Below are positions 951-49,455 of a stretch of DNA of 53,610 bases, in pieces. The translations under genes and the position numbers were made by a program. The notes below the pieces were generated by a model that was given only the letters and a program-made list of their open reading frames with translations, was not told where the DNA came from and searched no databases. The DNA is from a virus, in the IMG/VR virus record IMGVR_UViG_3300021426_000022, positions 1 through 53,610 of that record, one strand, 5' to 3'. Within the stretch, counting starts at the first letter, position 1. Every line of letters starts with the position of its first letter.

Positions 951-2693
951 TTATGCAAATGCTATCTGTCCATTGTTTTCTACCGTAACGCTCAGCCTCG
1001 GCTGACGTTCTCCGACTTTTATCTCTGAGCAGTTCGCCTCAACGATTGCCCTGGCAACTATAGGCACTACGCTGTTGCCGATCCGCGCCACCTGTGCGCT
1101 CTTCGGGTAAGGCTTCCACCTATAATCACGGTCAATGATGTAGTCTTTAGGGAATCCCTGTGCCAGCTTCAGCTCTTCCGGCGAGAGCATTCTCAAAAAG
1201 ATATCCACGATGCAGTATTCACTGCCAAGGATTGTGATCAGTGCGAGCCTGTCCTTCGTGACCACCGTGTGAAGCGGCTCATCCAGAGACTGGCCCGTAC
1301 CACATCCGTAGTACTCCATGATGAATTGAGATACCCAGGTGCATTTCTGAGCTGTTTCATCATCGATACCGGATTGCTTCAGCTGCTTCCAGTCAACTGC
1401 CAATATTGACACCTGCCCGAAGTGCCCGGGGGATGTCGTAATGGTGTGGAGCGGTTCCATAACGCTCTGTCCGGTACATGTTTTGTAAAACTTTGTCAGG
1501 AATGCAGATACCATCGCATATCTGTTGCTCGTATCAATGGTCTTGATTGGTTCGGTAACATACTGTCCCCTCGGTTCCTTTGTTGTTTCGGAATGATACT
1601 GAATCAAGATGGGGGTAACCAGTCTGTTATGGTCTACAGTTGTTACCGTCGACAACGGTTCATCTGACTTACTTCCGCATCCTTTATAATTTCCCGCATA
1701 TGCCTTATCAATGAATGGGCTCAAAACCGGAGTGATAAGACCATGGTGCCCACCTGTTGTAATTGTCAGGAGCGGTGATTTTGCATTGCCTCCCGGGGCT
1801 CCATGATTATTGCGCATCATGTAAGGGGCGAGAACCGGTGTTACGACACCATATCCATGTTTTGAAGTAATCGTTGACAACGGCTCATGTATGCTCTGGC
1901 CTCGGAACTTCTCGCCACCATGATTCACCGTTACGATAAATGGTTCGGGATTTTTAAAAACGAACTTGTCAAGCCCGGCAGCGATCCGCCTCATGGTCTT
2001 TTCTGCGAGCGGTTTCTTTCGCCCGAAAATTGATTTCCCGAAATCCAAAAGATTAAGGTACTTCCAAATCGGCTCCCACCGTGCTGTTCCCGGAACGGAG
2101 CCATCCCTGCTGTGTGTCTGCTTTGGCCAGACTATAGGCTGCCCGTCGCATCTGAATATCGCATACCACCTTTTTCGGGTAGTCGGTGCTCCGTAATCGG
2201 CAGCCACAAGTTCACGGCAGTCGAACACGTATCCCATGCTCTTGATTGCAGCTATGAAGCGCTGATACTCCTCGCCGGCCTGTTCTTTGATTGGATGACC
2301 GTTCTTGTCAAGCGGTCCCCATTGCTGTATCTCCTCGACATTCTCCATGATGATTACATCGGGATGAACTGCCTTTGCATGTTTGTAAACCGCCCATGGG
2401 AGCATCCGTATCCCGCTCTCGCGGGGCTTTCCGCCTTTAGCCTTGCTGAACTGTGTGCAGTCCGGAGAAGCCCACATAAGAGCTACATGCTTACCCTTTG
2501 TGTATTTGAGCAGGTCGACCTCGAATACATCCTCTGTAAGGTGAAGCGTATAAGGATGATTCGTTCTGTGCATCAGGATTGCAGCAGGATCGTGATTGAC
2601 TGCAATATCCGGAGACCTCCCAAGTGCAAGCTCTATGCCTACGGAAGCGCCGCCACCACCCGCAAACATGTCAATAATCAGTCCGTCCCGCAT
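951..2693 (-). CDS. DNA (cytosine-5)-methyltransferase with six tandem TRD-like modules
   Basis: Motifs I DMFAGGGG, IV ASPDCTQFS, VI ENV, VIII TTRKR, IX RMLSPEELKLAQGFP and X GNSVVP. Start placed at the ATG overlapping the upstream stop (TGATG), with a GGGAGG SD. Confidence 0.93.
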   Translation of the reverse strand: MRDGLIIDMFAGGGGASVGIELALGRSPDIAVNHDPAAILMHRTNHPYTLHLTEDVFEVDLLKYTKGKHVALMWASPDCTQFSKAKGGKPRESGIRMLPWAVYKHAKAVHPDVIIMENVEEIQQWGPLDKNGHPIKEQAGEEYQRFIAAIKSMGYVFDCRELVAADYGAPTTRKRWYAIFRCDGQPIVWPKQTHSRDGSVPGTARWEPIWKYLNLLDFGKSIFGRKKPLAEKTMRRIAAGLDKFVFKNPEPFIVTVNHGGEKFRGQSIHEPLSTITSKHGYGVVTPVLAPYMMRNNHGAPGGNAKSPLLTITTGGHHGLITPVLSPFIDKAYAGNYKGCGSKSDEPLSTVTTVDHNRLVTPILIQYHSETTKEPRGQYVTEPIKTIDTSNRYAMVSAFLTKFYKTCTGQSVMEPLHTITTSPGHFGQVSILAVDWKQLKQSGIDDETAQKCTWVSQFIMEYYGCGTGQSLDEPLHTVVTKDRLALITILGSEYCIVDIFLRMLSPEELKLAQGFPKDYIIDRDYRWKPYPKSAQVARIGNSVVPIVARAIVEANCSEIKVGERQPRLSVTVENNGQIAFA

Positions 2694-2887
2694 CAGTCCC
2701 AAACCTCCCAAGGATCGTCATCGTCCCCGAAACTAATATCATCATCTTCGTACTCGTCATCATCCCACAGCTTTTCTGCCGCGTGCTTTCTTACATGATA
2801 GATGATAAGTGCCACATCGATAATCGTGGCAATAACAAGGATAATGAGAGTCACTCTAACATCATTTGCATTTGCAGCAGCCATCAT
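2693..2887 (-). CDS. Small single-pass membrane protein with a poly-acidic C-terminal tail (64 aa)
   Basis: Hydrophobic segment VTLIILVIATIIDVALIIY followed by DDDEYEDDDISFGDDDDPWEVWD. ATGA overlap with the upstream stop; GGGAGGG SD. Confidence 0.6.
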   Translation of the reverse strand: MMAAANANDVRVTLIILVIATIIDVALIIYHVRKHAAEKLWDDDEYEDDDISFGDDDDPWEVWD

Positions 2888-3105
2888 AAATTCTTTCCCT
2901 CCCATTCATATATTCTTCCATACCGCGAATCGCGCACCTGGATATATTGGACGGTGATGTCCTTGTTGATCAGAGCGAAGATAGCCTGACATATTACGCA
3001 TGCTTTTCTCAGGTCTTTCGGCATTCTCGTCTTCTGTGTTACATTCTTTATAGCCTCGCAGGCTGTCGGGTCGCGGTATCCTTCAGCGTTATAAAAATTA
3101 CTCAT
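2884..3105 (-). CDS. Hypothetical protein (73 aa)
   Basis: Start moved to the internal ATG (MSNFYNAEGYRDPTA...) preceded by GGAGGAAGAACAGT. Overlaps the upstream stop. Confidence 0.55.
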   Translation of the reverse strand: MSNFYNAEGYRDPTACEAIKNVTQKTRMPKDLRKACVICQAIFALINKDITVQYIQVRDSRYGRIYEWEGKNL

Positions 3106-3391
3106 ACTGTTCTTCCTCCGGATAGAGCTGAGCATATTCATCGGAGTTAAATGCATCAGCATCGCACTCCCTCTTGTAGCAGTGAATGCTCACGCTCTTG
3201 CCTCCATCTCTTACGCTGAGGAATTCAGACGGTCTCATATTGAGAATGGTCCGGTAATCTGCCTTGCAGAACATTCCTTTCCAGTGCTTGTCAAGGAATG
3301 CGATGGTCTCCCGCGCTGTCCGGAAGATATCAATCGAATGAATAGTTCCTTCGACGTTCTTGCATCTGGTCTTTACCCTGTATGTGATCAC
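3098..3391 (-). CDS. Hypothetical protein (97 aa)
   Basis: ORF in the operon frame series with plausible packing. No family recognised. Confidence 0.55.
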   Translation of the reverse strand: MITYRVKTRCKNVEGTIHSIDIFRTARETIAFLDKHWKGMFCKADYRTILNMRPSEFLSVRDGGKSVSIHCYKRECDADAFNSDEYAQLYPEEEQYE

Positions 3392-3402
3392 TTATGTACC
3401 TC

Positions 3403-4560
3403 CTAATTCAAAAAGTCATTGATTGACATTTGGCCCGGTATCTGACCTGCATTGATCAGGTCTCCGTATTCCACCCCGATATAGTCAAGCACTCTCGCCC
3501 ATCCGTAAGGAGTGCCGTCCGGATCCTTGCAGCATTTGTACATCCAGAAATCCCATTCCTTCGGGTTTTTCTCTTTGAGAAGGTCAAAACGATGCGGTCT
3601 CTTTTCGATGTGGATGCCAAATCCACACATGGTGCATCCTGTCCTCTGTGCCTTGGTCGTGTAGAGCGTTCCGTCTGATCTGCGCTCTATCGTGCCGTAA
3701 ATCTCAGGTACTGGTACATTCAAATCAAGAGCCAGTTGCAGAAGGTCCTGTCTGTAGAAAATTGCAAAAGGACAGCTCCTGATTGTTGACTTCCCCCAAT
3801 AATTACAACCGTGCATCATGAGGCTTTTTGCTCTGCGTCCTCCCTCGGAAGCCATCATGCCGAGGAACGGCACGGAATTGTGCTCCTTCGCCCAATCGTC
3901 GCAGGGCTTCTCCTTCAGGTAGTAACAGCATTTCTGGCTCACCTTGAAATTGTCCGGCTTTCCGTAATTCGTCCCCTCGTTCTCGTTTTCATATCCGCCA
4001 AACAGCTCCAACCATCTCTGTGATAGCTTCATCCGGCTGTTTTTCTGCCATCCGCCATATTCGCCTGTTTCCCCGGTGATGATGGCATGCCTGACCGTTT
4101 TGTTATCCTCAGATGGATTTTCAAGCAATTCGATTTTCCCGGCTATTTCCTTACTCAGGACAGGGAATCCATACTCCTGGAGTATCTCCATCTTTGTCCA
4201 TGGCTTGCCTTCTCTCGGCCCGTCTGTATGCTTTGCAGGCGTCAGTCTTGTTACACCCATAAGCCGGTGCACATATTGGATGCTCCTGTCTTCCAATCCT
4301 GAACAGCTGATAAGCTCGACGTCATGAAATCCGCAATGATCTCTGATGAAGTACGACAGTGTAATAGAATCGAGTCCGCCAACGCTTACATGCGTGTTAT
4401 ATCCTTTCTCTCTTGCCTCTTTGATATACTCTCTTACAAGATTCTCGGCATAGCGGACTTTCATCGCATATGATAAGCAGCGCTGTTTCTGGAGGAACGC
4501 CGCCTTCTTTTCCTCGACGTTGTTCTCTTCCATCATCTCAAATACACTTTTACCCATCAC
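3403..4560 (-). CDS. Phosphoadenosine-phosphosulfate (PAPS) reductase-like / PP-loop ATPase family protein with a Cys-rich C-terminal domain
   Basis: PP-loop-like HVSVGGLDS near the N-terminus. C-terminal cluster CTMCGFGIH...KCC. Size and layout are typical of phage PAPS_reduct (IbrA/DndC-like) proteins. Confidence 0.8.
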   Translation of the reverse strand: MMGKSVFEMMEENNVEEKKAAFLQKQRCLSYAMKVRYAENLVREYIKEAREKGYNTHVSVGGLDSITLSYFIRDHCGFHDVELISCSGLEDRSIQYVHRLMGVTRLTPAKHTDGPREGKPWTKMEILQEYGFPVLSKEIAGKIELLENPSEDNKTVRHAIITGETGEYGGWQKNSRMKLSQRWLELFGGYENENEGTNYGKPDNFKVSQKCCYYLKEKPCDDWAKEHNSVPFLGMMASEGGRRAKSLMMHGCNYWGKSTIRSCPFAIFYRQDLLQLALDLNVPVPEIYGTIERRSDGTLYTTKAQRTGCTMCGFGIHIEKRPHRFDLLKEKNPKEWDFWMYKCCKDPDGTPYGWARVLDYIGVEYGDLINAGQIPGQMSINDFLN

Positions 4561-4566
4561 CGCACC

Positions 4567-4989
4567 TCAACACAAAATCTTCTGCTGCATCAGGTCTTTC
4601 GGGAACTCCAGTTTCACGCCCGTTTCTGCTTCGAGACGAGCTACGATGTCATGCCAGTCAATGCTCCCTTCCATCAGCGCATCGATATGGCGGTTAAATT
4701 CTTTCTGGAACCGGAGGAGCCGTTTAGCTCCCCACTGGTTCTGTTCGTACAGGATAATCATCGCCATGGCCTGCACGCTACTGTAGCAGTAGCATTTCAT
4801 GGTCAGCGTTGCCGCGTCCAATTCCTTCTTTGTCATCGGGAGTGTGACACCCGTAGACCGTCTCATGCGTATCATCCTCTTAAGCTCGTCCGAAACGCAT
4901 CCCCCATCCTGTTCTACTTCAAGGGCTGTCTTCCGTGCGGTCTCAAGTCCGCGAAGGAAACCCTCAAACTCTGCGTCTTTCTTGCTCAT
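4567..4989 (-). CDS. Hypothetical protein (140 aa)
   Basis: ORF with AAAGGAGATTAAGAC-ATG initiation region. Confidence 0.6.
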   Translation of the reverse strand: MSKKDAEFEGFLRGLETARKTALEVEQDGGCVSDELKRMIRMRRSTGVTLPMTKKELDAATLTMKCYCYSSVQAMAMIILYEQNQWGAKRLLRFQKEFNRHIDALMEGSIDWHDIVARLEAETGVKLEFPKDLMQQKILC

Positions 4990-4992
4990 GTC

Positions 4993-5358
4993 TTAATCTC
5001 CTTTAGTCGCTAACCTTTCGCACTCTTCTTCTTCCGTCCATCCGAGCAGCTCCACCATGAGCATTGCCTTTTCAGCCTTCGTCCACTGAGAAGCGAAAGT
5101 TTTTATAACAAACTTTGTCTGACTGAACATTACTTTCGGATCGCCGATAAGTACTTCGCCCATCAATTCCGAGGGTGTAGTCTGAAGTTCTTTTGCAATC
5201 TTGAGCAGGATAGTGGCTTTCGGAATCCGATCTCCGCTCACATATCTTGATATGCTTTGCTCCGTCACCCCAACATGCTCTGCAAGCATTCTCTGATTCA
5301 TTCCGAGTGCGTTCAGCCGTTTGCAAATGTTTATGCCTATCACATTGTCTTCCGTCAT
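4993..5358 (-). CDS. XRE-family helix-turn-helix DNA-binding protein (121 aa)
   Basis: HTH_3 pattern: ICKRLNALGMNQRMLAEHVGVTEQSISRYVSGDRIPKATILLKIAKEL. Confidence 0.85.
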   Translation of the reverse strand: MTEDNVIGINICKRLNALGMNQRMLAEHVGVTEQSISRYVSGDRIPKATILLKIAKELQTTPSELMGEVLIGDPKVMFSQTKFVIKTFASQWTKAEKAMLMVELLGWTEEEECERLATKGD

Positions 5359-16195: not shown

Positions 16196-16403
16196 CTCTT
16201 GCCTCCTCGATCAGCTCCCTGAGCTTCTTCTTTTCCTGCTCCGTCAAGTCGTGCCTGGCACCGTCCAGAAAGTAAAACGGGCTTTCGGAAAACGGTTCCT
16301 TGATAGCTGCCTGATATACATCACCCGTTCCGATGACGTAGGTGTTAAGCGTGGCGCGGATGCCCTTGCCGACTGTCTCGACCTTGATACTGATTGTTTT
16401 CAT
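16188..16403 (-). CDS. Hypothetical protein (71 aa)
   Basis: ORF overlapping the upstream stop by 4 nt. Confidence 0.55.
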   Translation of the reverse strand: MKTISIKVETVGKGIRATLNTYVIGTGDVYQAAIKEPFSESPFYFLDGARHDLTEQEKKKLRELIEEARGV

Positions 16404-16645
16404 GCTGGCTTTCTCCTTCTTCCGAAGATTCTCCGCCGCGTCGACCGTTTGACTGTCTCGGATAAGTTGTTCTGCCTCAGATTGAATCTCTCAATCCAGT
16501 CGGGAAGGTCGTCAACGTAGACGAACCACTTCCCGCCCCCGGGTGTCTTAAATCCAGGAAAATCTTCTTCTTGAGCGTAGCGCTTGAGCTGATCACGGGA
16601 ATAGCCAAGCTCTACCAACTGGGTAAAACTCATAACCCGTTTCAT
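16400..16645 (-). CDS. Excisionase/MerR-like (HTH_17) DNA-binding protein; candidate Xis
   Basis: MSFTQLVELGYSRDQLKRYAQEEDFPGFKTPGGGKWFVYVDDLPDWI matches the winged-helix Xis-type pattern. Confidence 0.65.
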   Translation of the reverse strand: MKRVMSFTQLVELGYSRDQLKRYAQEEDFPGFKTPGGGKWFVYVDDLPDWIERFNLRQNNLSETVKRSTRRRIFGRRRKPA

Positions 16646-16668
16646 TTCTGCGCCTCCTTTCCGTGAAT

Positions 16669-16884
16669 TTAATTCACACTTCCGGCCAAAAAAATAGCGT
16701 CACGTTCTTCGGTTGTGAGACGAAGCACGTTAGTGATCCCGACTATCTCCTTGGCTGTGAATTCGCCGATGCCCTTCTTGCGATTATAATAGGTCTCTCT
16801 TGAGATCCCCGCCGCCTTACTGATCGCTTCGATTGTTGATCCTGAACGCTTCATAATGCTTTCAAGCATTTCAAAATCTGTCAT
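16669..16884 (-). CDS. Small HTH protein, Cro-like candidate (71 aa)
   Basis: HTH segment STIEAISKAAGISRETYYNRKKG. Confidence 0.65.
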   Translation of the reverse strand: MTDFEMLESIMKRSGSTIEAISKAAGISRETYYNRKKGIGEFTAKEIVGITNVLRLTTEERDAIFLAGSVN

Positions 16885-16904
16885 GCATTACCTCCTTTCT
16901 CTTT

Positions 16905-17381
16905 TCATGCTCCGATTGCACTGATTACTGCAAATACAGGTTCAAGTTCCTGCAAGTCCCGGTATTTGCGCTTGAATGCTCCAAGCTCTGCCAATGCGTT
17001 ACGGTAGAGCACCCCGCGAGACCTGTCATCAGCCATCGCCGATGCGATATTGATGTACCGGGCTTTGTTGTGCTGGCTTCCATTGGATACATTGACAAAT
17101 GCTTTGACCGTCTTCGGTTCAGCTCCTTCGGCATCGATCTCAATTCGAAGATTGTTGATGATTGTTTTGGACTGATGGAGACGATACTTCTCAGCTGCAA
17201 CATCATCTCTCCACTCAAACATCCCGTGTGTGGGTGAGTCTTCCGGTCTGGAAGCATCCAGAAATGCTTCCTTGGTGACCTGTCCGTCTCTTGCTTCAAT
17301 GACTTCCAACGTCTGCCCTACCGTTTCCGCCGGCACCTTGTATGCTTCTGCCGCGTAACTGTACTTGCGTTTGTATACCAT
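16905..17381 (-). CDS. Hypothetical protein (158 aa)
   Basis: Start moved to the ATG (MVYKRKYSY...) behind AAAGGAGGTGTACGA. The upstream part of the track ORF lies in the repeat tract. Confidence 0.65.
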   Translation of the reverse strand: MVYKRKYSYAAEAYKVPAETVGQTLEVIEARDGQVTKEAFLDASRPEDSPTHGMFEWRDDVAAEKYRLHQSKTIINNLRIEIDAEGAEPKTVKAFVNVSNGSQHNKARYINIASAMADDRSRGVLYRNALAELGAFKRKYRDLQELEPVFAVISAIGA

Positions 17382-18019
17382 TCGTACACCTCCTTTCTGG
17401 CTTCCAAGCCTGCCTTGACTTACCACAGCTCACCACGCCTCTCCTTTTCCAACCCTACCCTGCCTGCCTTGCCCTTGCCTGACAAGCCTTAACCCGACAC
17501 ACCCCGCCAATCCAAGCCTGCCCTGCCTCGCCCGTCATGCCCTATCTTGACGTACCACACCATTCCTGCCATATCTCGCCATTACACACACTGACAAACC
17601 CTAACTAACAACACCCATATGTACCAAGCCTGCCATACCGAGCCGCTACTTATCCCGCCCCAACTTGACCTACCCCACCATGCCTGCCATACCTCGACTC
17701 AGCTCACCTCGCCGTACAGGACCACACCGGAACACAACAAGCTTTTCCTTACCCCGCCTGCCATGACTTACCCCGCCCCACACAGACGTAACAGTCCCTA
17801 CCACACCAAGCCTGCCATGACCTACCAAGCACAAACTTGCCCCAACAGAACTCGACTCGCCTCACCTGGACTGCCAGACCATAACAAGCCTTACCGCACC
17901 TTGTCACGCCCCACCGAGCAAAACCTAAACGCGCCGAACCTTGACTGCCGTACCGTGCCAGGCCTCGCCCCGACAAAACACACCTCACAGAACCTAACCT
18001 GTCCTGCCTTGCATGGGAA
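17382..18019. repeat. Non-coding, strongly strand-asymmetric tract (C-rich and G-poor on the plus strand) with at least 10 same-orientation copies of a degenerate CCTGCCAT-centred motif
   Basis: Core copies are near 17406, 17514, 17563, 17626, 17680, 17755, 17808, 17866, 17940 and 18000. Consensus is AAGCCTGCCATGACYTACC. Two 35-nt units (17546-17580 and 17664-17698) match at 30/35 positions. Sampled 60-nt lines contain about 27 C against 8-10 G. Confidence 0.85.
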
Positions 18020-18039
18020 GCGGCTGATTACTCAGCCGC
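18020..18039 (-). terminator. GC-rich hairpin overlapping the stop codon of the 223-aa gene (no U-tract)
   Basis: GCGGCTGA-gtaa-TCAGCCGC, an 8-bp stem, followed by TTCCCAT. May act as a terminator or RNA stabiliser. Confidence 0.35.
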
Positions 18040-18699
18040 CTCTACGTGATACATTCCGTTCCGTCCGTCTTTCTCGGGCCGCCACTCTCCGATTCCGCAG
18101 GCAAAGCCTCCGGCATTAATGCAGTTGATGATCTGTTCAATCGTCATGGATCCGTTGGAGTTGTACTCGATTACTAAGTCCATGTACCAGGTCGAAAACT
18201 CTCCGCGGTATCTCAGATCCGTGCCGCCGATTCCTACGCGGACCATATCCTCGCGCATCTCGGGGACACTGCCCTTAATCTCTGCATACTCTCCAAACTC
18301 TGTTGAAAGGAAGTATGATCCTCTGAGAGCCATCTGGTTTGATACCCAGCCCATACGATATGCGGCGCTGTTTGCACTCTGCTTGATACCACCGACCGGA
18401 AAACCAAACTTTGCACCATCCTCGACTGCCTTGATGAATTTCTCTTCCAGTTCCTCATCAGTGTCTGCTTCCGGCTTAGGAGTAAGCCAGTACAGAGAAT
18501 TGACAAAGTCCTCAAACGGTCTTCTGCTCTCACGAGCCTTGGTCTTCGTTGTCTTCTGCTGCGCTTCGAGCATCTGGCGCTTTGCCTTCTCACTCCAAGC
18601 GTGAACGATGAGCGGCGTGTCTCCAACGATCCTGATCGGGATCCTCTCTACACTGATGGGCTTAATCTCAATAGTTGCTTCTTTCTTTGCTGTTGCCAT
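18028..18699 (-). CDS. Orphan protein (223 aa) immediately downstream of the RNA island
   Basis: Clean ORF. Beta-rich N-terminus IRIVGDTPLIVHAW and a glycine-rich C-terminal loop GGFACGIGEWRPEKDGRNG. No family recognised by eye. Confidence 0.8.
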   Translation of the reverse strand: MATAKKEATIEIKPISVERIPIRIVGDTPLIVHAWSEKAKRQMLEAQQKTTKTKARESRRPFEDFVNSLYWLTPKPEADTDEELEEKFIKAVEDGAKFGFPVGGIKQSANSAAYRMGWVSNQMALRGSYFLSTEFGEYAEIKGSVPEMREDMVRVGIGGTDLRYRGEFSTWYMDLVIEYNSNGSMTIEQIINCINAGGFACGIGEWRPEKDGRNGMYHVEAAE

Positions 18700-18747
18700 T
18701 TTGTTACCTGCCTTTCTTATCTTTTTCTTTCTTTATGCTTTTACACT

Positions 18748-18768
18748 GCCGGTCTTTCCCGGCTGTCA
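18748..18768 (-). repeat. Conserved 21-nt hairpin element, copy A
   Basis: GCCGGTCTTTCCCGGCTGTCA matches the copy at 19008-19028 at 20/21 positions. On the minus strand it folds as GCCGG-GAAAGA-CCGGC. Lies about 50 nt upstream of the 223-aa ORF. Confidence 0.8.
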
Positions 18769-18911
18769 GAGCGTTTTACCTTACAAGCTCACAACGTATC
18801 CAGTCTCTTCTTCCTTGCGTCACGCGCTGGCGCCCGACTGCCTGAGGCTCATCTTCAGGATTTCGGATAGTGCACCTAAGGTTTGTCGACAAACACTATC
18901 CAGAAGCCTAA

Positions 18912-19002
18912 TCGGGATGATAGGAATCGAACCTATATCAAGAGGTTTCGCGGGACTACCTTCTTATCAACCACCGAAGCTCTACCATTGAGCTACATCC
19001 CG
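18912..19002 (-). ncRNA. tRNA-like cloverleaf #3 (91 nt) with a non-canonical anticodon region
   Basis: Acceptor CGGGAUG/CAUCCCG, D arm GCUC-AAUGGUA-GAGC, T arm AUAGG-UUCGAUU-CCUAU. There are 42 nt between the D and T arms; the best helix there is AAGA(A)GG/CCUCUU closing a 13-nt loop UAGUCCCGCGAAA. Confidence 0.6.
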
Positions 19003-19007
19003 TTGTT

Positions 19008-19028
19008 GCCGGTCTCTCCCGGCTGTCA
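19008..19028 (-). repeat. Conserved 21-nt hairpin element, copy B
   Basis: GCCGGTCTCTCCCGGCTGTCA. It ends 5 nt (AACAA) upstream of the 5' end of cloverleaf #3. A partial third copy, CCGGTCTCTC, is at 19119-19128. Confidence 0.8.
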
Positions 19029-19158
19029 CGGATTCCTGACAGGCTGCTTGCAATCTCCGTCATCACAATTCGCACCGTGCCTGCTTGGCGTGGGTTTAGC
19101 CATCCACATCGCATCCCCCCGGTCTCTCGCGCTTATAGCGGGTGGATTGTCGACCAAA

Positions 19159-19241
19159 TAGGGAATGAAGGATTCGAACCTTCGTCTCGGATTATCCTGA
19201 GTTTAAGCGCGCCCCGCGCTCTACCACTGATCTAATTCCCT
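19159..19241 (-). ncRNA. tRNA-like cloverleaf #2 (83 nt) with no recognisable anticodon arm
   Basis: Acceptor AGGGAAU/AUUCCCU, D arm GAUC-AGUGGUA-GAGC (one mismatch), T arm GAAGG-UUCGAAU-CCUUC. The 33 nt between them contain GCGCG-GGG-CGCGC and CUC(A)GG/CCGAG helices. Confidence 0.55.
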
Positions 19242-19246
19242 CTATA

Positions 19247-19274
19247 AAGGGCGGCCAGCACGATTGCCGCCCTT
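19247..19274 (-). other. 9-bp GC-rich hairpin 5 nt upstream of cloverleaf #2
   Basis: AAGGGCGGC-10 nt-GCCGCCCTT. Flanked by a TTTATAG tail on the minus strand and GTTTGTT on the plus strand, so it could be a weak terminator or a processing hairpin. Confidence 0.5.
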
Positions 19275-19354
19275 GTTTGTTATGCAATTTTGGCGTTGGC
19301 CCTTAATAGACTGCTATAGTTACGGGTGTATGATTGTGTCCATAGCCTGTGCCG

Positions 19355-19786: not shown

Positions 19787-19858
19787 CGCGAGTGCCAGGA
19801 ATTGAACCTGTGGTATGGACTGCGCGACATCCATGTTCTGCCACTGAACTACACTCGC
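19787..19858 (-). tRNA. tRNA-like gene #1 (72 nt) with an 8-nt anticodon loop; identity undetermined
   Basis: Acceptor GCGAGUG/CACUCGC, D arm GUUC-AGUGGCA-GAAC, T arm (A)CAGG-UUCAAUU-CCUG(G). Anticodon helix UGGAU/GUCCA encloses GUCGCGCA. Variable region is 4 nt. In the canonical 7-nt register only 2 Watson-Crick pairs and 1 wobble pair form. Confidence 0.6.
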
Positions 19859-20398: not shown

Positions 20399-20427
20399 AC
20401 TATAAATGTTCTTTGCGTGAATGTCAA
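20399..20427 (-). promoter_or_regulatory. Early (lytic) sigmaA-type promoter
   Basis: The minus strand reads TTGACA, 17 nt, TATAGT (-35 at 20422-20427, -10 at 20399-20404). Confidence 0.7.
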
Positions 20428-20444
20428 GCACATTTACTGATTTT

Positions 20445-20461
20445 GTTGAATTTCTTTCACA
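20445..20461. promoter_or_regulatory. Operator-like site O3 (GTTGAAtttctTTCACA)
   Basis: Same architecture as O1. Overlaps the -35 of the repressor promoter. Confidence 0.5.
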
Positions 20462-20474
20462 GAAGGAGTATATT
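20446..20474 (+). promoter_or_regulatory. Repressor (maintenance) promoter
   Basis: TTGAAT, 17 nt, TATATT on the plus strand, about 30 nt upstream of the repressor ATG. Confidence 0.6.
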
Positions 20475-20504
20475 CTAATTATCAGAAGTGAAGGAGGGGG
20501 TACT

Positions 20505-20894
20505 ATGGAACAGTTGTATAAGAACATAAAAGCAAGGCGGATAGAGCTTGGCCTAACACAGCAGGAGCTCGCCGAAAAGATGGGCTATACGAACAGGTCG
20601 AGCATTGCCAAGATAGAAAATGGTGCTGTCGACCTCAGTCAGTCGAAAATCATCCAGTTTGCTAAAGTTCTGGAAACTACTCCGGGGTCCTTGATGGGAA
20701 GCGCAGACCATCATGAGGAACTCATTAACACACAGTCTGAACATCAGGAATATTATGAAGATGAAACCGTCCGGGCAGTTACAGATCGTCTCAGGAAGAA
20801 TCCTGAGTATTCCGTCATGTTCAAGGCTGCATCTAATGTAAAACCGGAGGACATTGATTTTGTTACACAATTTATCGAGAAGATGTCTAATTAG
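20505..20894 (+). CDS. XRE/ImmR-like phage repressor (129 aa)
   Basis: Start at MEQLYKNIKARRIELGLTQQELAEKMGYTNRSSIAKIENG behind GAAGGAGGGGGTACT. HTH_3 pattern. Followed by an ImmA-like gene. Confidence 0.88.
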   Translation: MEQLYKNIKARRIELGLTQQELAEKMGYTNRSSIAKIENGAVDLSQSKIIQFAKVLETTPGSLMGSADHHEELINTQSEHQEYYEDETVRAVTDRLRKNPEYSVMFKAASNVKPEDIDFVTQFIEKMSN

Positions 20895-21613: not shown

Positions 21614-22735
21614 ATGGCAAAATCTAAGTACAAGAGACGCGCAGACGGTCGTAAGGAAGCCACGATCCGGATTGACGGAAAGCGGATCCACGTCTACGGC
21701 TACACTGATTTGGAGATTGAACTCCAGAAAGAAGAACTGATTAAAGCATCCCATGACGGGACACTGTATGTCGACAAGGTAACAACATTCCGGGAATGGT
21801 CCGGAAAGTGGCTGGAGCTGACGAGGCCGAATCGAAGCGTGAACACCATGAAGATGTATGATAGTTCCGTAGCAAAGCTTGACGCGCTCCTGGGAGATTA
21901 TCCGCTGTCTGCTCTGAAGACGTCCGACCTGCAACTTGCGCTTAACCGGTATGCTGACAATCCGAGGACTCAGGAAATCCTTTACATCACCCTTGGCCAG
22001 ATCTATAGCAAGGCCTTAGCCGAGGAAATGATTGTCAAGAATCCGTGTACGAAGCTTGAAAAGGTGAAGTATAAGGCACCCGAAAAGAGATCTCTTACGG
22101 ATGCTGAGAAGGATGCAGTTGAAAGGGCGGAGCTGAAGCTCTCGGACAGGATCCTGTTGGACTTACTCTACTACTGCGGACTTAGAAGAGGGGAAGTTCT
22201 GGCACTGTCCCGGGGACAGTTTGATTTGAAGAAGTGGACCGTCAAGATTGATGCAGCTATCGTGTTCGTAACAGACAGCCATTCGGAGCGAAAGCCTATG
22301 CCGAAGACCGAAGCAGGATTCCGAACGCTTCCGATCCCGTCCCCGATCAGAGACAGAATCACAGAGTATCTCAGCGAGTTAGATGGGATGTATCTGTTCA
22401 CGAAGCAGGACGGAGCTTTTGTTACTCACAACAGCTATGCTTCTCTTTGGAAGAGAATCCTGCTCGCAGTCAACACGGCTGCCGGCGGAGTGAATTACTA
22501 TGATAAAGCCAAGCGAAAGACTCTTATGCAAATAAATGCAATCCCGGGACTCACCGCGCATGTCTTCCGGCACAACTACTGCACGATGCTCTATTATGCA
22601 GGCGTGCCGGTCAAAGACGCGCAATATCTCATGGGACACGCCAACCCCATGACGACGCTCAGCATATACACACATCTCGACCAGATGAATACATCCTCTG
22701 CCGAGCTCCTTGAGAATTACTTGATCGGTACTTGA
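21614..22735 (+). CDS. int: Tyrosine integrase
   Basis: R in CGLRRGEVLAL, HxxR in AHVFRHNYC, H and Y in MGHANPMTTLSIYTHL. Adjacent to attP. Confidence 0.93.
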   Translation: MAKSKYKRRADGRKEATIRIDGKRIHVYGYTDLEIELQKEELIKASHDGTLYVDKVTTFREWSGKWLELTRPNRSVNTMKMYDSSVAKLDALLGDYPLSALKTSDLQLALNRYADNPRTQEILYITLGQIYSKALAEEMIVKNPCTKLEKVKYKAPEKRSLTDAEKDAVERAELKLSDRILLDLLYYCGLRRGEVLALSRGQFDLKKWTVKIDAAIVFVTDSHSERKPMPKTEAGFRTLPIPSPIRDRITEYLSELDGMYLFTKQDGAFVTHNSYASLWKRILLAVNTAAGGVNYYDKAKRKTLMQINAIPGLTAHVFRHNYCTMLYYAGVPVKDAQYLMGHANPMTTLSIYTHLDQMNTSSAELLENYLIGT

Positions 22736-26403: not shown

Positions 26404-26457
26404 TTATAACCTTCGTTTTTTGAAGCATGAAAAATGCCCGTTTTGCGAAGGTTATAA
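26404..26457. repeat. 12-bp perfect inverted repeat TTATAACCTTCG / CGAAGGTTATAA with a 30-nt spacer
   Basis: Read directly, in the 417-bp non-coding gap upstream of the holin gene. Confidence 0.85.
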
Positions 26458-26480
26458 GGCTGTTTATTGCGAAGATAAAG

Positions 26481-26540
26481 CGTTACAATGCGTTACAATG
26501 CGTTACAATGCGTTACAATGCGTTACAATGCATTACAAAG
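26481..26540. repeat. 10-bp tandem array: CGTTACAATG x5 perfect plus one degenerate unit (CATTACAAAG)
   Basis: Read directly. One unit per helical turn. On the transcribed strand each unit reads CATTGTAACG (contains TTGTAA). Confidence 0.95.
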
Positions 26541-26686
26541 ATATCAGCGAGCACACTGATAAAACGAGAATGTAAAATCCTATGGATATCAAATCGCCTG
26601 CTGTCTGGGATGCATCCCCTATGAGGATTCCATGCACCCCAAACAGTAAGAACGCAAAAGCTGATATCATGCCGATGGCGGCAAAC

Positions 26687-47540: not shown

Positions 47541-48977
47541 TTAGAATCCCCCTGAGAATCCCTTGTTTCGATTTATACCGGATGCGTTCTCGCTTATCAG
47601 CATCTTCTCCACAACGCCTGTCGTAGCGTCCTCAGCGTCATCGTGGGCGTTCTTGCCGTCCCTCTGGTATCTTGTCATGTCATCGTAGTATTCAGGCCAT
47701 TTATACATCCAGTCAGCCGGGAAATACACATGCTCCATGACCGTTGTCGCATTCGACAGGATACGCGCCCGCTTGTTCTGCGACTGGTAGAACCAATGCA
47801 CGACAGCTCTGTTGTTACCGTATCGGCCTGTGAGGATCTGTTTCACGTTCCGGGCAAATCCGCGCCCACCGTTGTTTGATTCGACATCTGCCCATGTAAC
47901 GCCGTTCTCGTGGATAGACCGAGCGACCTTCGGCTCCGTAATCTCCATCGGGTCTTTTGTGTGGATAACATCCAGAACATAAGCATCATGCGCAGGAGAA
48001 ACTCCGTAAACAATGTGACTGAGGTTATCCGATCCGGTATCCGCTGTATCTGTATAGCTCTTGATCGCAATAAAAAACGGATGTCCGCTCTCATCACGCG
48101 GTACATCCGTATATGTCTTGAATCTGGAATACAGCCTGCCCTTGATGTCAATCGGGTTCTGCTGATAGTTCGCGTCTGCGACTTCGGCACCCATCGCCTT
48201 ACGCTTTGACTCATAGCTTGCTTTGCTGAGTATCTCCGGGCAGAGCATCGTGCCGTCATCGCGCACGGCCTTGAAATTCAAATGCCGAACAGTCCAACCA
48301 TACTCGGCAGCATGCTCCACGATCCGTCCTGCAAGGTCATCCGTCGCCCATCTGGTCATAACGATAATGAGCTTTCCGTGTTCTTCCAGTCGGGAGAGCA
48401 TCGTGCCAGTGAACCAATCCCAGTGCGCTTGCTTCACGTTCGCGTTATTTGCTTCATATCGTGATTTTATCAGGTCGTCGATGATTATCAGGTCTGCACC
48501 GAATCCGGTTGCTGTACCGGTCGGAGACGTCGCCAGATAGTTATTATAGCCGTCTTCCAGTGACCACAGGTTCATAGCGGCGTCACCGCGCTTTACCTTT
48601 GTGCGTGGGAAGATATCCGAGTACACGATTCGGTAACGGTCCGCTTTCGTCTCCATGATAGAATCGCGGACACCCTTCGAGAATGTCGTTGACAGCTTCT
48701 CGTTATACGATCCGGTCATGATCTTGTATCGGTGATTGCGTCCAAGCACCCATTCAACCAGGCATCCTATTGTGCGTGACTTGCCGTGACGCGGAGGCGC
48801 GTTGATGATGAGTACATCATCGTCCGACACAATGAATTCCTGCAAGGTCTCGCAGAATTCTACCAGATAACCCCTGTCCGGCTTGTAGAAGTCCGGCGCT
48901 TTCAGATTGCAGTAATCAAAGAAGTGCCGCCTTGCAAGCTCGCATTTCGCGCCGAGGGCAATCATCCGCCTATCCAT
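47541..48977 (-). CDS. terL: Terminase large subunit
   Basis: Walker A INAPPRHGKS, Walker B-like LIIIDDLI, a C-terminal nuclease-type region, and position. Confidence 0.9.
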   Translation of the reverse strand: MDRRMIALGAKCELARRHFFDYCNLKAPDFYKPDRGYLVEFCETLQEFIVSDDDVLIINAPPRHGKSRTIGCLVEWVLGRNHRYKIMTGSYNEKLSTTFSKGVRDSIMETKADRYRIVYSDIFPRTKVKRGDAAMNLWSLEDGYNNYLATSPTGTATGFGADLIIIDDLIKSRYEANNANVKQAHWDWFTGTMLSRLEEHGKLIIVMTRWATDDLAGRIVEHAAEYGWTVRHLNFKAVRDDGTMLCPEILSKASYESKRKAMGAEVADANYQQNPIDIKGRLYSRFKTYTDVPRDESGHPFFIAIKSYTDTADTGSDNLSHIVYGVSPAHDAYVLDVIHTKDPMEITEPKVARSIHENGVTWADVESNNGGRGFARNVKQILTGRYGNNRAVVHWFYQSQNKRARILSNATTVMEHVYFPADWMYKWPEYYDDMTRYQRDGKNAHDDAEDATTGVVEKMLISENASGINRNKGFSGGF

Positions 48978-49455
48978 TGTCTTTCGCCAGCTTTCTCAGC
49001 TGGTCCTCATTGAGACCGGCAAAAGGATTCGTGTCGAGCTGACCGGATATTTCGACTTGCTGCTTATCGCCGTATTTGTCTTTCATGCGGTTCTTCATCA
49101 GGAATATAAGCAATGTGGAATCCGGTGGAACCTTCTTCTCGACTTCTTTAATGACGACAAGCTCCTTCTTTCCGCTCTCACGGTTGAATTGAAGAGCTCG
49201 TGTAATCTCCTTCACTGTGCGCCATTGTGTAGCTCTCTCGAACGCCGTATCTTCCAGAATGACATCGACGGGCTCTCTGCCCTTTTTTAATGCCTCGCAA
49301 ATCTCGCAGTATTTATCTTTCCACCTGTACAGGGTTGCGACGTTGATTCCCATCTTCTTAGCAATTTCTTCATCGGTTAACCCGTCGCGAGCCCATCCCT
49401 TAAGCAAGAGCAAGCTATCTTCCGTTAACCAGTTTTCAAACTTGCCCTTTGCCAC
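48970..49455 (-). CDS. terS: Terminase small subunit (HTH type)
   Basis: N-terminal HTH LTDEEIAKKMGINVATLYRWK. 161 aa. Overlaps terL. Confidence 0.8.
   Translation of the reverse strand: MAKGKFENWLTEDSLLLLKGWARDGLTDEEIAKKMGINVATLYRWKDKYCEICEALKKGREPVDVILEDTAFERATQWRTVKEITRALQFNRESGKKELVVIKEVEKKVPPDSTLLIFLMKNRMKDKYGDKQQVEISGQLDTNPFAGLNEDQLRKLAKDNG

Follow-up and report, generated by a model that had tools for sequence, protein, structure and literature searches.

What purpose is served by a 646-nucleotide (nt) tract of phage DNA that lies between two small genes and is rich in G on one strand and poor in it on the other? The tract occupies positions 17382–18027 of IMG/VR virus record IMGVR_UViG_3300021426_000022, whose whole stretch of 53,610 nt was analyzed (hereafter the window). 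It is flanked on the minus strand by genes for a 223-amino-acid (aa) protein (18028–18699) and a 158-aa protein (16905–17381). The initial annotation had described it as a non-coding, strand-asymmetric repeat tract and had proposed three roles: a replication origin, a centromere-like or regulator-binding array, or a protein-sponging RNA. Here, we conclude with high confidence that the tract is a vrRNA array of a Viral Interference Programmable Repeat (VIPR) system, in a tail-less staggered layout, carried by a temperate phage of a Clostridia-type host. The evidence comprises the anatomy of the tract, which is built of pentamers and GGCA four-mers, a conserved module of Vipr gene, array and partner gene, and a gapped, wobble-phased complementarity of the array to another phage.

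VIPR consists of a phage-encoded ancestral RAMP protein (Vipr), an accessory gene (vap) and vrRNAs of 9–16 YNNGG repeats, in which GGY is conserved and NN is hypervariable (10.64898/2026.04.26.720920). The NN bases pair with double-stranded DNA (dsDNA) with a '1-nt skip', the skipped base usually being a codon wobble position, and the system, of which seven types have been distinguished, silences competing phages (10.64898/2026.04.26.720920). The layouts reported include 'staggered arrays', in which vrRNAs overlap by 1 nt; these were presented in a supplementary figure and were not confirmed by small RNA sequencing (10.64898/2026.04.26.720920). Type II VIPR has been characterized in Escherichia phage SUSP1 and in a Pseudomonas fulva prophage, and VIPR has been proposed to pre-date CRISPR (2026 preprints, 10.64898/2026.04.26.720920 and 10.64898/2026.04.26.720927). 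Cryo-electron microscopy revealed one Vipr protomer per repeat and a target that forms a gapped R-loop triplex; H17, D177, R138 and W178 hold G1 and G2, and R179 with neighbouring residues holds Y3 (10.64898/2026.04.26.720927). The R-loops form at the target DNA, not at the array (10.64898/2026.04.26.720927).

A pentamer array with register slips

On the plus strand, the tract contains 24.3% A, 42.9% C, 14.6% G and 18.3% T, compared with 28% C and 22% G in the whole window, and the GC skew runs from −0.44 to −0.59 over 17300–17999. The reported strand asymmetry was thus borne out. At least ten motifs in one orientation had also been reported. This count holds for the degenerate 6-nt core CCTGCC (11 copies in the tract, 52 in the window), but not for the exact octamer CCTGCCAT, which occurs five times in the tract and six times in the whole window, or nine times in the tract when one mismatch is allowed. 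All of these tract copies are on the plus strand, with none on the other, and the 35-nt units at 17546–17580 and 17664–17698 are indeed identical at 30 of 35 positions. As a chance baseline for the tract, 1000 dinucleotide-preserving shuffles of the tract itself were used. The minus-strand motif GGCAGG was observed nine times versus 1.66 ± 1.2 in the shuffles (maximum 6), and ATGGCAGG five times versus 0.05.

The spacing of these motifs, previously taken to be irregular between 44 and 75 bp, proved to be quantized as 5n−1 (54, 59, 64 and 74 nt). Such steps of five were first seen in related loci, where GGCAGG spacings are 54, 59, 64, 69 and 74 nt. Two model-free measures showed the same periodicity in the tract: minus-strand G had a lag-5 autocorrelation of 0.377 (0 ± 0.04 in shuffles) and a spectral power of 54 near a period of 4.9 nt (3.9 ± 1.4 in shuffles, maximum 13). 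Across 13 arrays, the autocorrelation of G peaked at lags 5, 10 and 15 (0.37, 0.33 and 0.30). In a spectral scan of the 53.6-kb window, pentamer-periodic G was found nowhere else, apart from one unrelated segment flagged by a weak signal at 26441–26590. This segment was rejected as a second array, as it is a 10-nt tandem repeat: the intergenic stretch 26480–26535 holds five to six perfect tandem copies of the unit GCATTGTAAC (minus strand), unrelated to the pentamer array.

Read on the minus strand, the tract is a series of degenerate GGYNN pentamers whose register slips by −1 at each GGCA four-mer. A Viterbi parse combined with direct reading placed the array at 17411–18008 (minus strand), with 117 pentamers and 11 GGCA four-mers that form ten units of 9–14 pentamers. 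The GGCAGG motif is therefore the point at which the pentamer register slips by one base, and the consensus first noted on the plus strand (AAGCCTGCCATGACYTACC) is the same junction viewed from the opposite strand (...GGTARGTCAT-GGCA-GGCTT...). Successive GGCAG[GT] motifs were spaced by a distance congruent to 4 modulo 5 in 242 of 351 cases. When the twelve commonest four-mer types of the parse are pooled, GGCA makes up 409 of 529. By position, 1,652 pentamers showed G at 0.84, G at 0.66 (T at 0.21) and C or T at 0.83, followed by two nearly unconstrained positions; as the register model presupposes GGY, these proportions are partly circular. Among the 15 arrays parsed first (L001–L014 in our numbering of loci, plus the window), 106 of 117 units fell within the 9–16 repeats described for VIPR.

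The ten units follow one another without a gap on the minus strand. U1 (17946–18004; 11 pentamers) reads NN = CA TA TC GA GT TT GG GA CT AC AC and is followed by U2 (17872–17945; 14 pentamers), U3 (17813–17871; 11) and U4 (17759–17812; 10). U5 (17685–17758; 14 pentamers) reads NN = GG AA AA TT GT CC GT CC AC GA GA GA GA AT; beyond it lie U6 (17631–17684; 10) and U7 (17567–17630; 12). Each of these seven carries its GGCA, as do U9 (17465–17518; 10) and U10 (17411–17464; 10), the latter being read directly because the automatic parse took its last GGCA as GGCAG. U8 (17519–17566) is irregular and possibly degenerate, with nine tokens and one internal four-mer, GACG.

The tract does not behave as coding sequence. 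The spectral power of G at period 3 was 0.4, stop codons occur in every frame, and the lengths of the repeat units step by 5 nt rather than 3; the long open reading frames (ORFs) called over it are artefacts, as had been suspected. The G/T-rich minus strand is the functional one and has the same orientation as the flanking genes. The pentamers are too degenerate for Tandem Repeats Finder, which reported nothing in the tract. An Rfam scan of the whole window at gathering thresholds returned three tRNA matches only, with no family in the tract and no CRISPR family, and a blastn search of 16300–19300 against the phage collection yielded just one 93-nt coding match. The predicted RNA fold had no excess stability (z = −0.8). 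GC content was 0.55–0.60 throughout without an AT-rich dip, and the repeat families within the tract are 63–85% identical, with intervening sequence of the same composition.

The vipr gene and its conserved neighbours

The 223-aa protein upstream of the array had been called an orphan and had been suggested as a binding partner of the tract. The first description did not hold, since at least 7,921 homologues were found at E ≤ 0.001 (phrog_4652); the second is a sensible suggestion. No Pfam domain was found in the protein. Its alignment-based AlphaFold2 model (pLDDT 81, pTM 0.75) was compared with the Protein Data Bank (PDB) using Foldseek, and the top 40 or more matches (best E 4e-5, probability 1.0, TMq 0.45–0.51) were without exception RAMP backbone subunits of the Csm3/Cas7 kind, from type III-A, type VII, Cmr and Cascade complexes. 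The model thus predicts the minimal RAMP fold expected of a Vipr protein, built of an RRM core with a thumb and a glycine-rich loop. The C-terminal G-loop reads ACGIGEWRPEKDG, and G201, G203, E204, W205 and R206 are invariant.

The reference Vipr used for comparison was gp039 of phage SUSP1 (NC_028808). This protein carries exactly H17, K33, R138, D177, W178 and R179; since the published residue numbers all fit gp039, we take it to be the published Vipr. An hhalign comparison of the 223-aa family profile with gp039 gave a probability of 97% (E 8e-11) over 67 C-terminal columns, from the thumb to the G-loop. The invariant E204-W205-R206 aligned to D177-W178-R179 and R164 aligned to R138. A counterpart of H17, which lies outside the aligned region, is proposed from motif comparison to be the invariant H32. 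On this profile comparison, the 223-aa protein is homologous to the characterized Vipr, with its GGY-contacting residues conserved, and we refer to its gene (18028–18699, minus strand) as vipr.

The position of the array beside vipr is conserved. In all 12 IMG/VR relatives, vipr is followed directly downstream by a G-skewed GGCAGG array and then by a homologue of the 158-aa protein. A genome scan with the vipr family alignment identified 69 loci. The closest are from metagenome-assembled genomes of Clostridia, Oscillospiraceae and Acutalibacteraceae (at most 63% identity), and others are from Alphaproteobacteria, Actinomycetota, Bacteroidota, Treponemataceae and further groups. A period-5 G tract is present on the vipr strand in 53 of the 69 loci, within about 1.5 kb of vipr in all but three, and no such tract occurs elsewhere over as much as 20 kb. 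Of the 16 loci that lack a tract, most are short or stop at vipr. The positions between GGY triplets are hypervariable between relatives. Array length ranges from about 300 to 1,260 nt among them, implying that guides are gained and lost rapidly. A second pentamer array is found upstream of vipr, besides the downstream one, in L002 and L003 (3591–3980) and also in L018, L022, L064, L069, L078 and L080.

The third member of the module is the 158-aa gene (16905–17381, minus strand; phrog_15946), which begins with an ATG at 17381 after AGGAGG. A single-protein search of viral contigs with its sequence gave no match; tblastn and a hidden Markov model (HMM) later found homologues. In 75 of 84 loci, the family HMM detected a homologue as the next gene after vipr, encoded on the vipr strand. 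When the window proteins were used in tblastn, only the 223-aa and 158-aa proteins adjoined the arrays of the 14 phage loci L001–L014. Two gene orders were observed: RAMP–array–partner, the Clostridia type seen in the window, and RAMP–partner–array, as in rhizobia. A Pfam scan of 28 family members and a PDB profile search gave no match and nothing credible, respectively. A single-sequence AlphaFold2 model of the protein reached a pLDDT of 40, and the family is not homologous to vap1 of SUSP1. From its conserved position, we infer that the 158-aa protein is the accessory partner (vap) of the system.

Two cultured actinophages carry the module. Gordonia phage Pipp (MN234179, L013) has its RAMP as gp42 and its partner as gp44, with the array between them at 3620–3889. 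Mycobacterium phage Saal (NC_023580, L014) has its RAMP as gp51 and its partner as gp52, with the array at 2610–2865, upstream of gp51. Both gp44 and gp52 are among the homologues detected with the 158-aa HMM, and both phages show clean (NNGGC)n tracts with the same ATGGCAGGC junction. The Pipp array is currently annotated as a coding sequence for a hypothetical protein (gene 43), which we read as a vrRNA array instead. In Saal, the annotated start of gp51 (position 2851 of the locus) falls inside the array; homology and an ATG preceded by a ribosome-binding site place the start near 2998.

Among the genes scanned between 13519 and 20894 of the window, no Cas family was found, and the 223-aa gene was the sole RAMP-like gene recognized. 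The locus has the composition of a minimal VIPR locus, namely vipr and one accessory gene, without a CRISPR array, in a phage.

Matches of the guides under a 1-nt skip

The units were converted to NNx patterns, and sequence collections were scanned for exact matches to 20-base cores. The core of U5 gave a single match in IMG/VR, on contig IMGVR_UViG_3300021399_000277 (L084), whose source metagenome also yielded two of the relatives that carry VIPR. The eight bases outside the core match as well, so that U5 agrees with its target (GGGCAAGAAGTTCGTCCCGGTGCCGACAGATGAAGAGGACAT) at 28 of 28 NN bases; the probability of such an extension by chance is about 1.5e-5. Every skipped base is the third codon position (wobble) of a 223-aa ORF on L084, which had no Pfam, PHROG or phage-collection match. 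Both ends of the match coincide exactly with the GGCA boundaries, and this supports the guide boundaries as drawn. The cores of U1, U2, U3, U4 and U7 had no exact match in IMG/VR viral contigs.

All 307 parsed guides, those of related arrays included, were then compared with the 14.8-kb L084 locus at a threshold of at least 85% of NN bases. Eight guides passed under a 1-nt skip, versus none under 0-, 2- or 3-nt skips and none in five shuffles of NN order. Only U5 among the eight had been chosen by search; the other seven are independent. Two of the eight matches are perfect, that of U5 and that of an L011 guide (20/20, in the DNA polymerase A gene), and five fall in the DNA polymerase A gene. 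The skipped base lies on codon position 3 in all eight. These matches point to NN-specified, wobble-phased targeting of a competing mobile element with a 1-nt skip. The window guides have no self-target: the best match of a window guide to the array-masked window was 14/18 (78%), below the 80% threshold of 10.64898/2026.04.26.720920.

In metagenomes, the U2 core had two matches. One, in L086, is an AT-rich chance match; the other, in L085 (Ga0256407_10010841), is weak and possibly due to chance (24/28). It lies at 2384–2425 and is wobble-phased, inside a 122-aa ORF (2246–2614, minus strand) resembling ribbon-helix-helix (RHH) or ParG proteins. L085 is plasmid-like, with a ParA gene (2634–3383, minus strand), the RHH-like ORF and a 520-aa protein. 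An L004 guide matches L085 elsewhere at 20/22, and the excess of matches on L085 over controls is weak (3 versus 0–2).

Two further sites were noted among the guides of relatives. A site in the terS gene of the window (49343–49381, minus strand, inside 48970–49455), encoding the helix-turn-helix (HTH) segment ...TDEEIAKKMGIN, has wobble-phased 1-nt-skip matches to an L006 guide (unit at 5183, 21/26) and an L011 guide (unit at 5203, 19/22). These two guides are similar to each other and not independent. The window phage or close kin may accordingly be a target of VIPR systems of its relatives. The stretch that encodes the G-loop of Vipr itself (CGIGEWRPEK) in L008 (4573–4611) and L001 (about 4591–4629) is matched at 23/26 by a guide of L012 (unit at 4685).

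Known systems, alternative explanations and meaning

VIPR has already been described in the 2026 preprints, and the window array is a further member with the tail-less staggered layout. Like the systems of SUSP1 and P. fulva, the window has a phage-encoded minimal RAMP of about 20–25 kDa with a C-G-[VI]-G-[DE]-W-R-P G-loop and a thumb arginine, an adjacent accessory gene, guides of 9–16 YNNGG/GGYNN repeats with variable NN, and wobble-phased 1-nt-skip matches to genes of competing phages without self-targets. There are also differences from SUSP1. The vrRNAs of SUSP1 are separate units of about 100 nt with a conserved 3′ tail that forms a hairpin or pseudoknot. The window units, in contrast, are tail-less and abut, parted by the GGCA four-mer alone, which is the 'staggered array' layout. 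The window array also lies between vipr and vap rather than flanking both, its GGY is more degenerate and often GTY, and its accessory protein is unrelated to vap1. An assignment to the SUSP1-like type II was rejected, given the tail-less units and the lack of excess folding energy.

Class 1 CRISPR-Cas systems (types III, VII and I) share the fold of Csm3, Cmr4 and Cas7, with a Foldseek probability of 1.0 to Csm3 chains. They also share one RAMP protomer per fixed guide length and a thumb that periodically interrupts the guide–target duplex. The target of VIPR, however, is dsDNA bound for silencing (10.64898/2026.04.26.720920 and 10.64898/2026.04.26.720927). The window system has a period of 5 nt, not 6, withholds three guide bases per protomer instead of one and skips one target base. 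It is phage-carried and lacks identical repeats, Cas6, Cas5, Cas10 and Cas11, and adaptation genes. RNA anti-CRISPRs (Racrs) and phage solitary repeat units are non-coding, repeat-derived phage RNAs that assemble with Cas7-type proteins. Racrs mimic host CRISPR repeats and poison host complexes, whereas the window phage supplies its own RAMP and its RNA carries target information. The trp leader RNA bound by TRAP has 11 (G/U)AG triplets at 5–6-nt spacing, on which a ring of 11 subunits assembles to bring about attenuation. This likeness is purely formal, a short RNA motif every 5 nt or so bound by a protein oligomer, and motif, fold and function differ. A TRAP-like ring protein and a two-tier G-quadruplex were both dropped as explanations once the neighbouring gene showed a Cas7-like RAMP fold.

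Several points weigh against the tract being a VIPR array. A convincing target was found for only one of the seven window guides scanned. In 1.2 Mb of sequence, mostly prophage flanks, 33 units reached 85% under a 1-nt skip versus 27, 13, 14 and 20 in the controls. Neither this set nor one of 0.34 Mb set the 1-nt skip clearly apart, and the rule became clear on the true target locus L084 alone. The GGY motif is looser than in SUSP1, the second G being T in 21% of pentamers, and several window pentamers (ATATG, GAAAA and AGCTT) violate it. The hhalign match to the SUSP1 Vipr is limited to the C-terminal third of the protein, and the 158-aa protein has no recognizable DNA-binding domain in addition to being unrelated to vap1.

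None of the three roles first proposed gained support. A sponge or decoy RNA would titrate a host RNA-binding or defence factor or, acting as an RNA anti-CRISPR, would cause host Cas7 filaments to misassemble. Many short G-rich repeats in an apparently unstructured RNA (z = −0.8) are what CsrB-type sponges show, and competition between the Cas7-like protein of the phage and host complexes of type III or type I is conceivable. Yet a sponge does not need hypervariable NN positions, and matches of 28/28 and 20/20, wobble-phased under one skip rule, would not be expected of it; the NN positions of U5 instead spell a 28/28 1-nt-skip match to a gene of another phage. The protein partner of the RNA is moreover encoded next door and conserved with it, so the bound protein is the phage's own. 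We regard a sponge as very unlikely.

The conserved element speaks against both DNA-based roles, since GGY and NN alternate on a single strand with a period of 5 nt and do not form a set of sites in dsDNA. A replication origin of the iteron type, or one primed through an R-loop or G-quadruplex, would depend on initiator binding or on priming by a persistent G-rich hybrid. It would fit the strong strand asymmetry, a G-rich transcript with many GG and GGG runs, the same-orientation repeats and the position of the tract in the early region, upstream of a gene for an SMC-like ATPase and replication-type genes. However, no AT-rich unwinding element interrupts the GC content of 0.55–0.60. Across relatives, the single-strand periodicity is kept, the positions between GGY triplets are hypervariable and array length varies from some 300 to 1,200 nt. 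Among hosts as distant as Mycobacterium, rhizobia and Clostridia, the tract goes together with a RAMP gene and not with an initiator of replication, and an origin gives no reason why its variable positions should match a gene of a foreign phage perfectly under a gapped code. An origin is hardly credible here.

We give just as little credence to a centromere-like or regulator-binding DNA array, to which an HTH protein or the 223-aa protein would bind in partition or in the control of an operon. Centromeres of the ParR and omega types typically consist of short tandem sites, the tract has about 11 same-orientation motif copies, and small HTH genes adjoin it at 16400–16884. The conserved neighbour, however, has an RNA-binding RAMP fold rather than an HTH or RHH fold, and there is no ParA-like or ParM-like partner gene nearby. 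By tblastn, the HTH genes are not beside the arrays of L001–L014; the HMM search of 84 loci used the vipr and 158-aa profiles only. The GGCAGG motif is, in addition, merely a one-base register slip of pentamers. Finally, low-complexity coding sequence or a degenerate CRISPR array, to which the ORFs of 79–166 aa callable over the tract, the annotation of the homologous Pipp tract as gene 43 and a unit spacing of 54–74 nt resembling a CRISPR repeat-plus-spacer period might point, has next to no chance of being correct, given the period-3 power, stop codons and 5-nt steps noted above, repeats of about 65–85% identity with 'repeat' and 'spacer' of the same composition, no Rfam CRISPR family, no cas genes besides the lone RAMP among the called ORFs, and guide–target complementarity that is gapped, not contiguous.

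The window is a temperate phage, with an integrase (21614–22735), an XRE repressor (20421–20894, plus strand), terS (48970–49455) and structural genes, and the tract lies in its early region. A consensus scan detected a sigma-70-like promoter, TTGACA-17-TATAGT (11/12), at 20399–20427 on the minus strand in the divergent immunity region, opposite the XRE gene. It is probably the early promoter of a leftward operon of three tRNA-like genes, vipr, array and vap, and may drive the array. The tRNA-like genes are on the minus strand just upstream of vipr, at 18912–19002, 19159–19241 and 19787–19858. All three were called by Rfam (44–51 bits); ARAGORN called the third alone, with an unassignable four-base anticodon (cgcg), and the first two are unusually long (91 and 83 nt). 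Stop-codon recoding, which these genes suggested as a way of making the tract coding, was ruled out by the 5-nt length steps and the lack of period 3.

A short leader (18009–18027, minus strand) separates the vipr stop codon from the first GGCA and contains one arm of a hairpin. This inverted repeat (I1; GAAGCGGCTGA / TCAGCCGCCTC) spans 18017–18042, overlaps the vipr stop codon and is complementary at 91% over 11 nt. No T-run follows it, and the terminator scan reported none there; the array is therefore most likely co-transcribed with vipr. The hairpin could affect RNA processing, or the amount of array transcript relative to that of vipr. At the other end, the array exit (17382–17410, minus strand) reads GGCTTGGAAGCC and leads into the ribosome-binding site AGGAGG (17394–17389) of the 158-aa gene. 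The array ending GGCA-GGCTT-GGAA(A/G)-(G)CC-(A/T)GAAAGGAG is also present in L001, L002, L003 and L009.

We propose the following mechanism, in which polymerization, R-loop binding and repression are taken from the preprints on SUSP1 and P. fulva. The array would be transcribed on the minus strand together with upstream vipr, as part of the early leftward operon. Vipr, as a minimal Cas7-like RAMP, would polymerize along the GGYNN RNA with one protomer per pentamer, each protomer sequestering GGY and presenting the two variable bases. By breaking the 5-nt register every 9–14 pentamers, GGCA would delimit ten guides and might act as a processing or filament-boundary signal. Each guide would then read dsDNA through a gapped NNxNNx... 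code, the skipped base being the wobble position in coding targets, and binding as an R-loop triplex would block transcription of genes of competing phages or plasmids. The product of the 158-aa gene (16905–17381) would serve as the accessory partner.

A more specific proposal is that, in this large family of over 7,900 Vipr homologues, the guides are delimited purely by the one-base slip of the pentamer register (GGCA, 5n−1), without a tail, ribozyme or Cas6-like site, and with the hitherto unclassified 158-aa accessory protein as the third component. We hold this only tentatively, as a possibility that is rather less probable than its negation. If it is true, the register of the Vipr filament would define where guides end and begin. 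Published descriptions may so far lack the junction rule, the exact positions of the guide boundaries and this vap family.

VIPR is a very recently reported form of RNA-guided DNA recognition with a gapped NNx code, and its 1-nt-skip and wobble rules were recovered here independently from other data, namely rumen- and gut-type Clostridia phages and IMG/VR. Such arrays are now mis-annotated as protein-coding or left blank, and a scan for period-5 G beside a CGxG[DE]WRP protein detects them cleanly. The tail-less layout is widespread and reaches culturable, tractable actinophages, the cluster-F-type mycobacteriophage Saal and Gordonia phage Pipp. U5 and the 223-aa ORF of L084 provide a specific guide–target pair, and the convergence of relatives' guides on the DNA polymerase gene of L084 offers a worked example of phage-versus-phage targeting.

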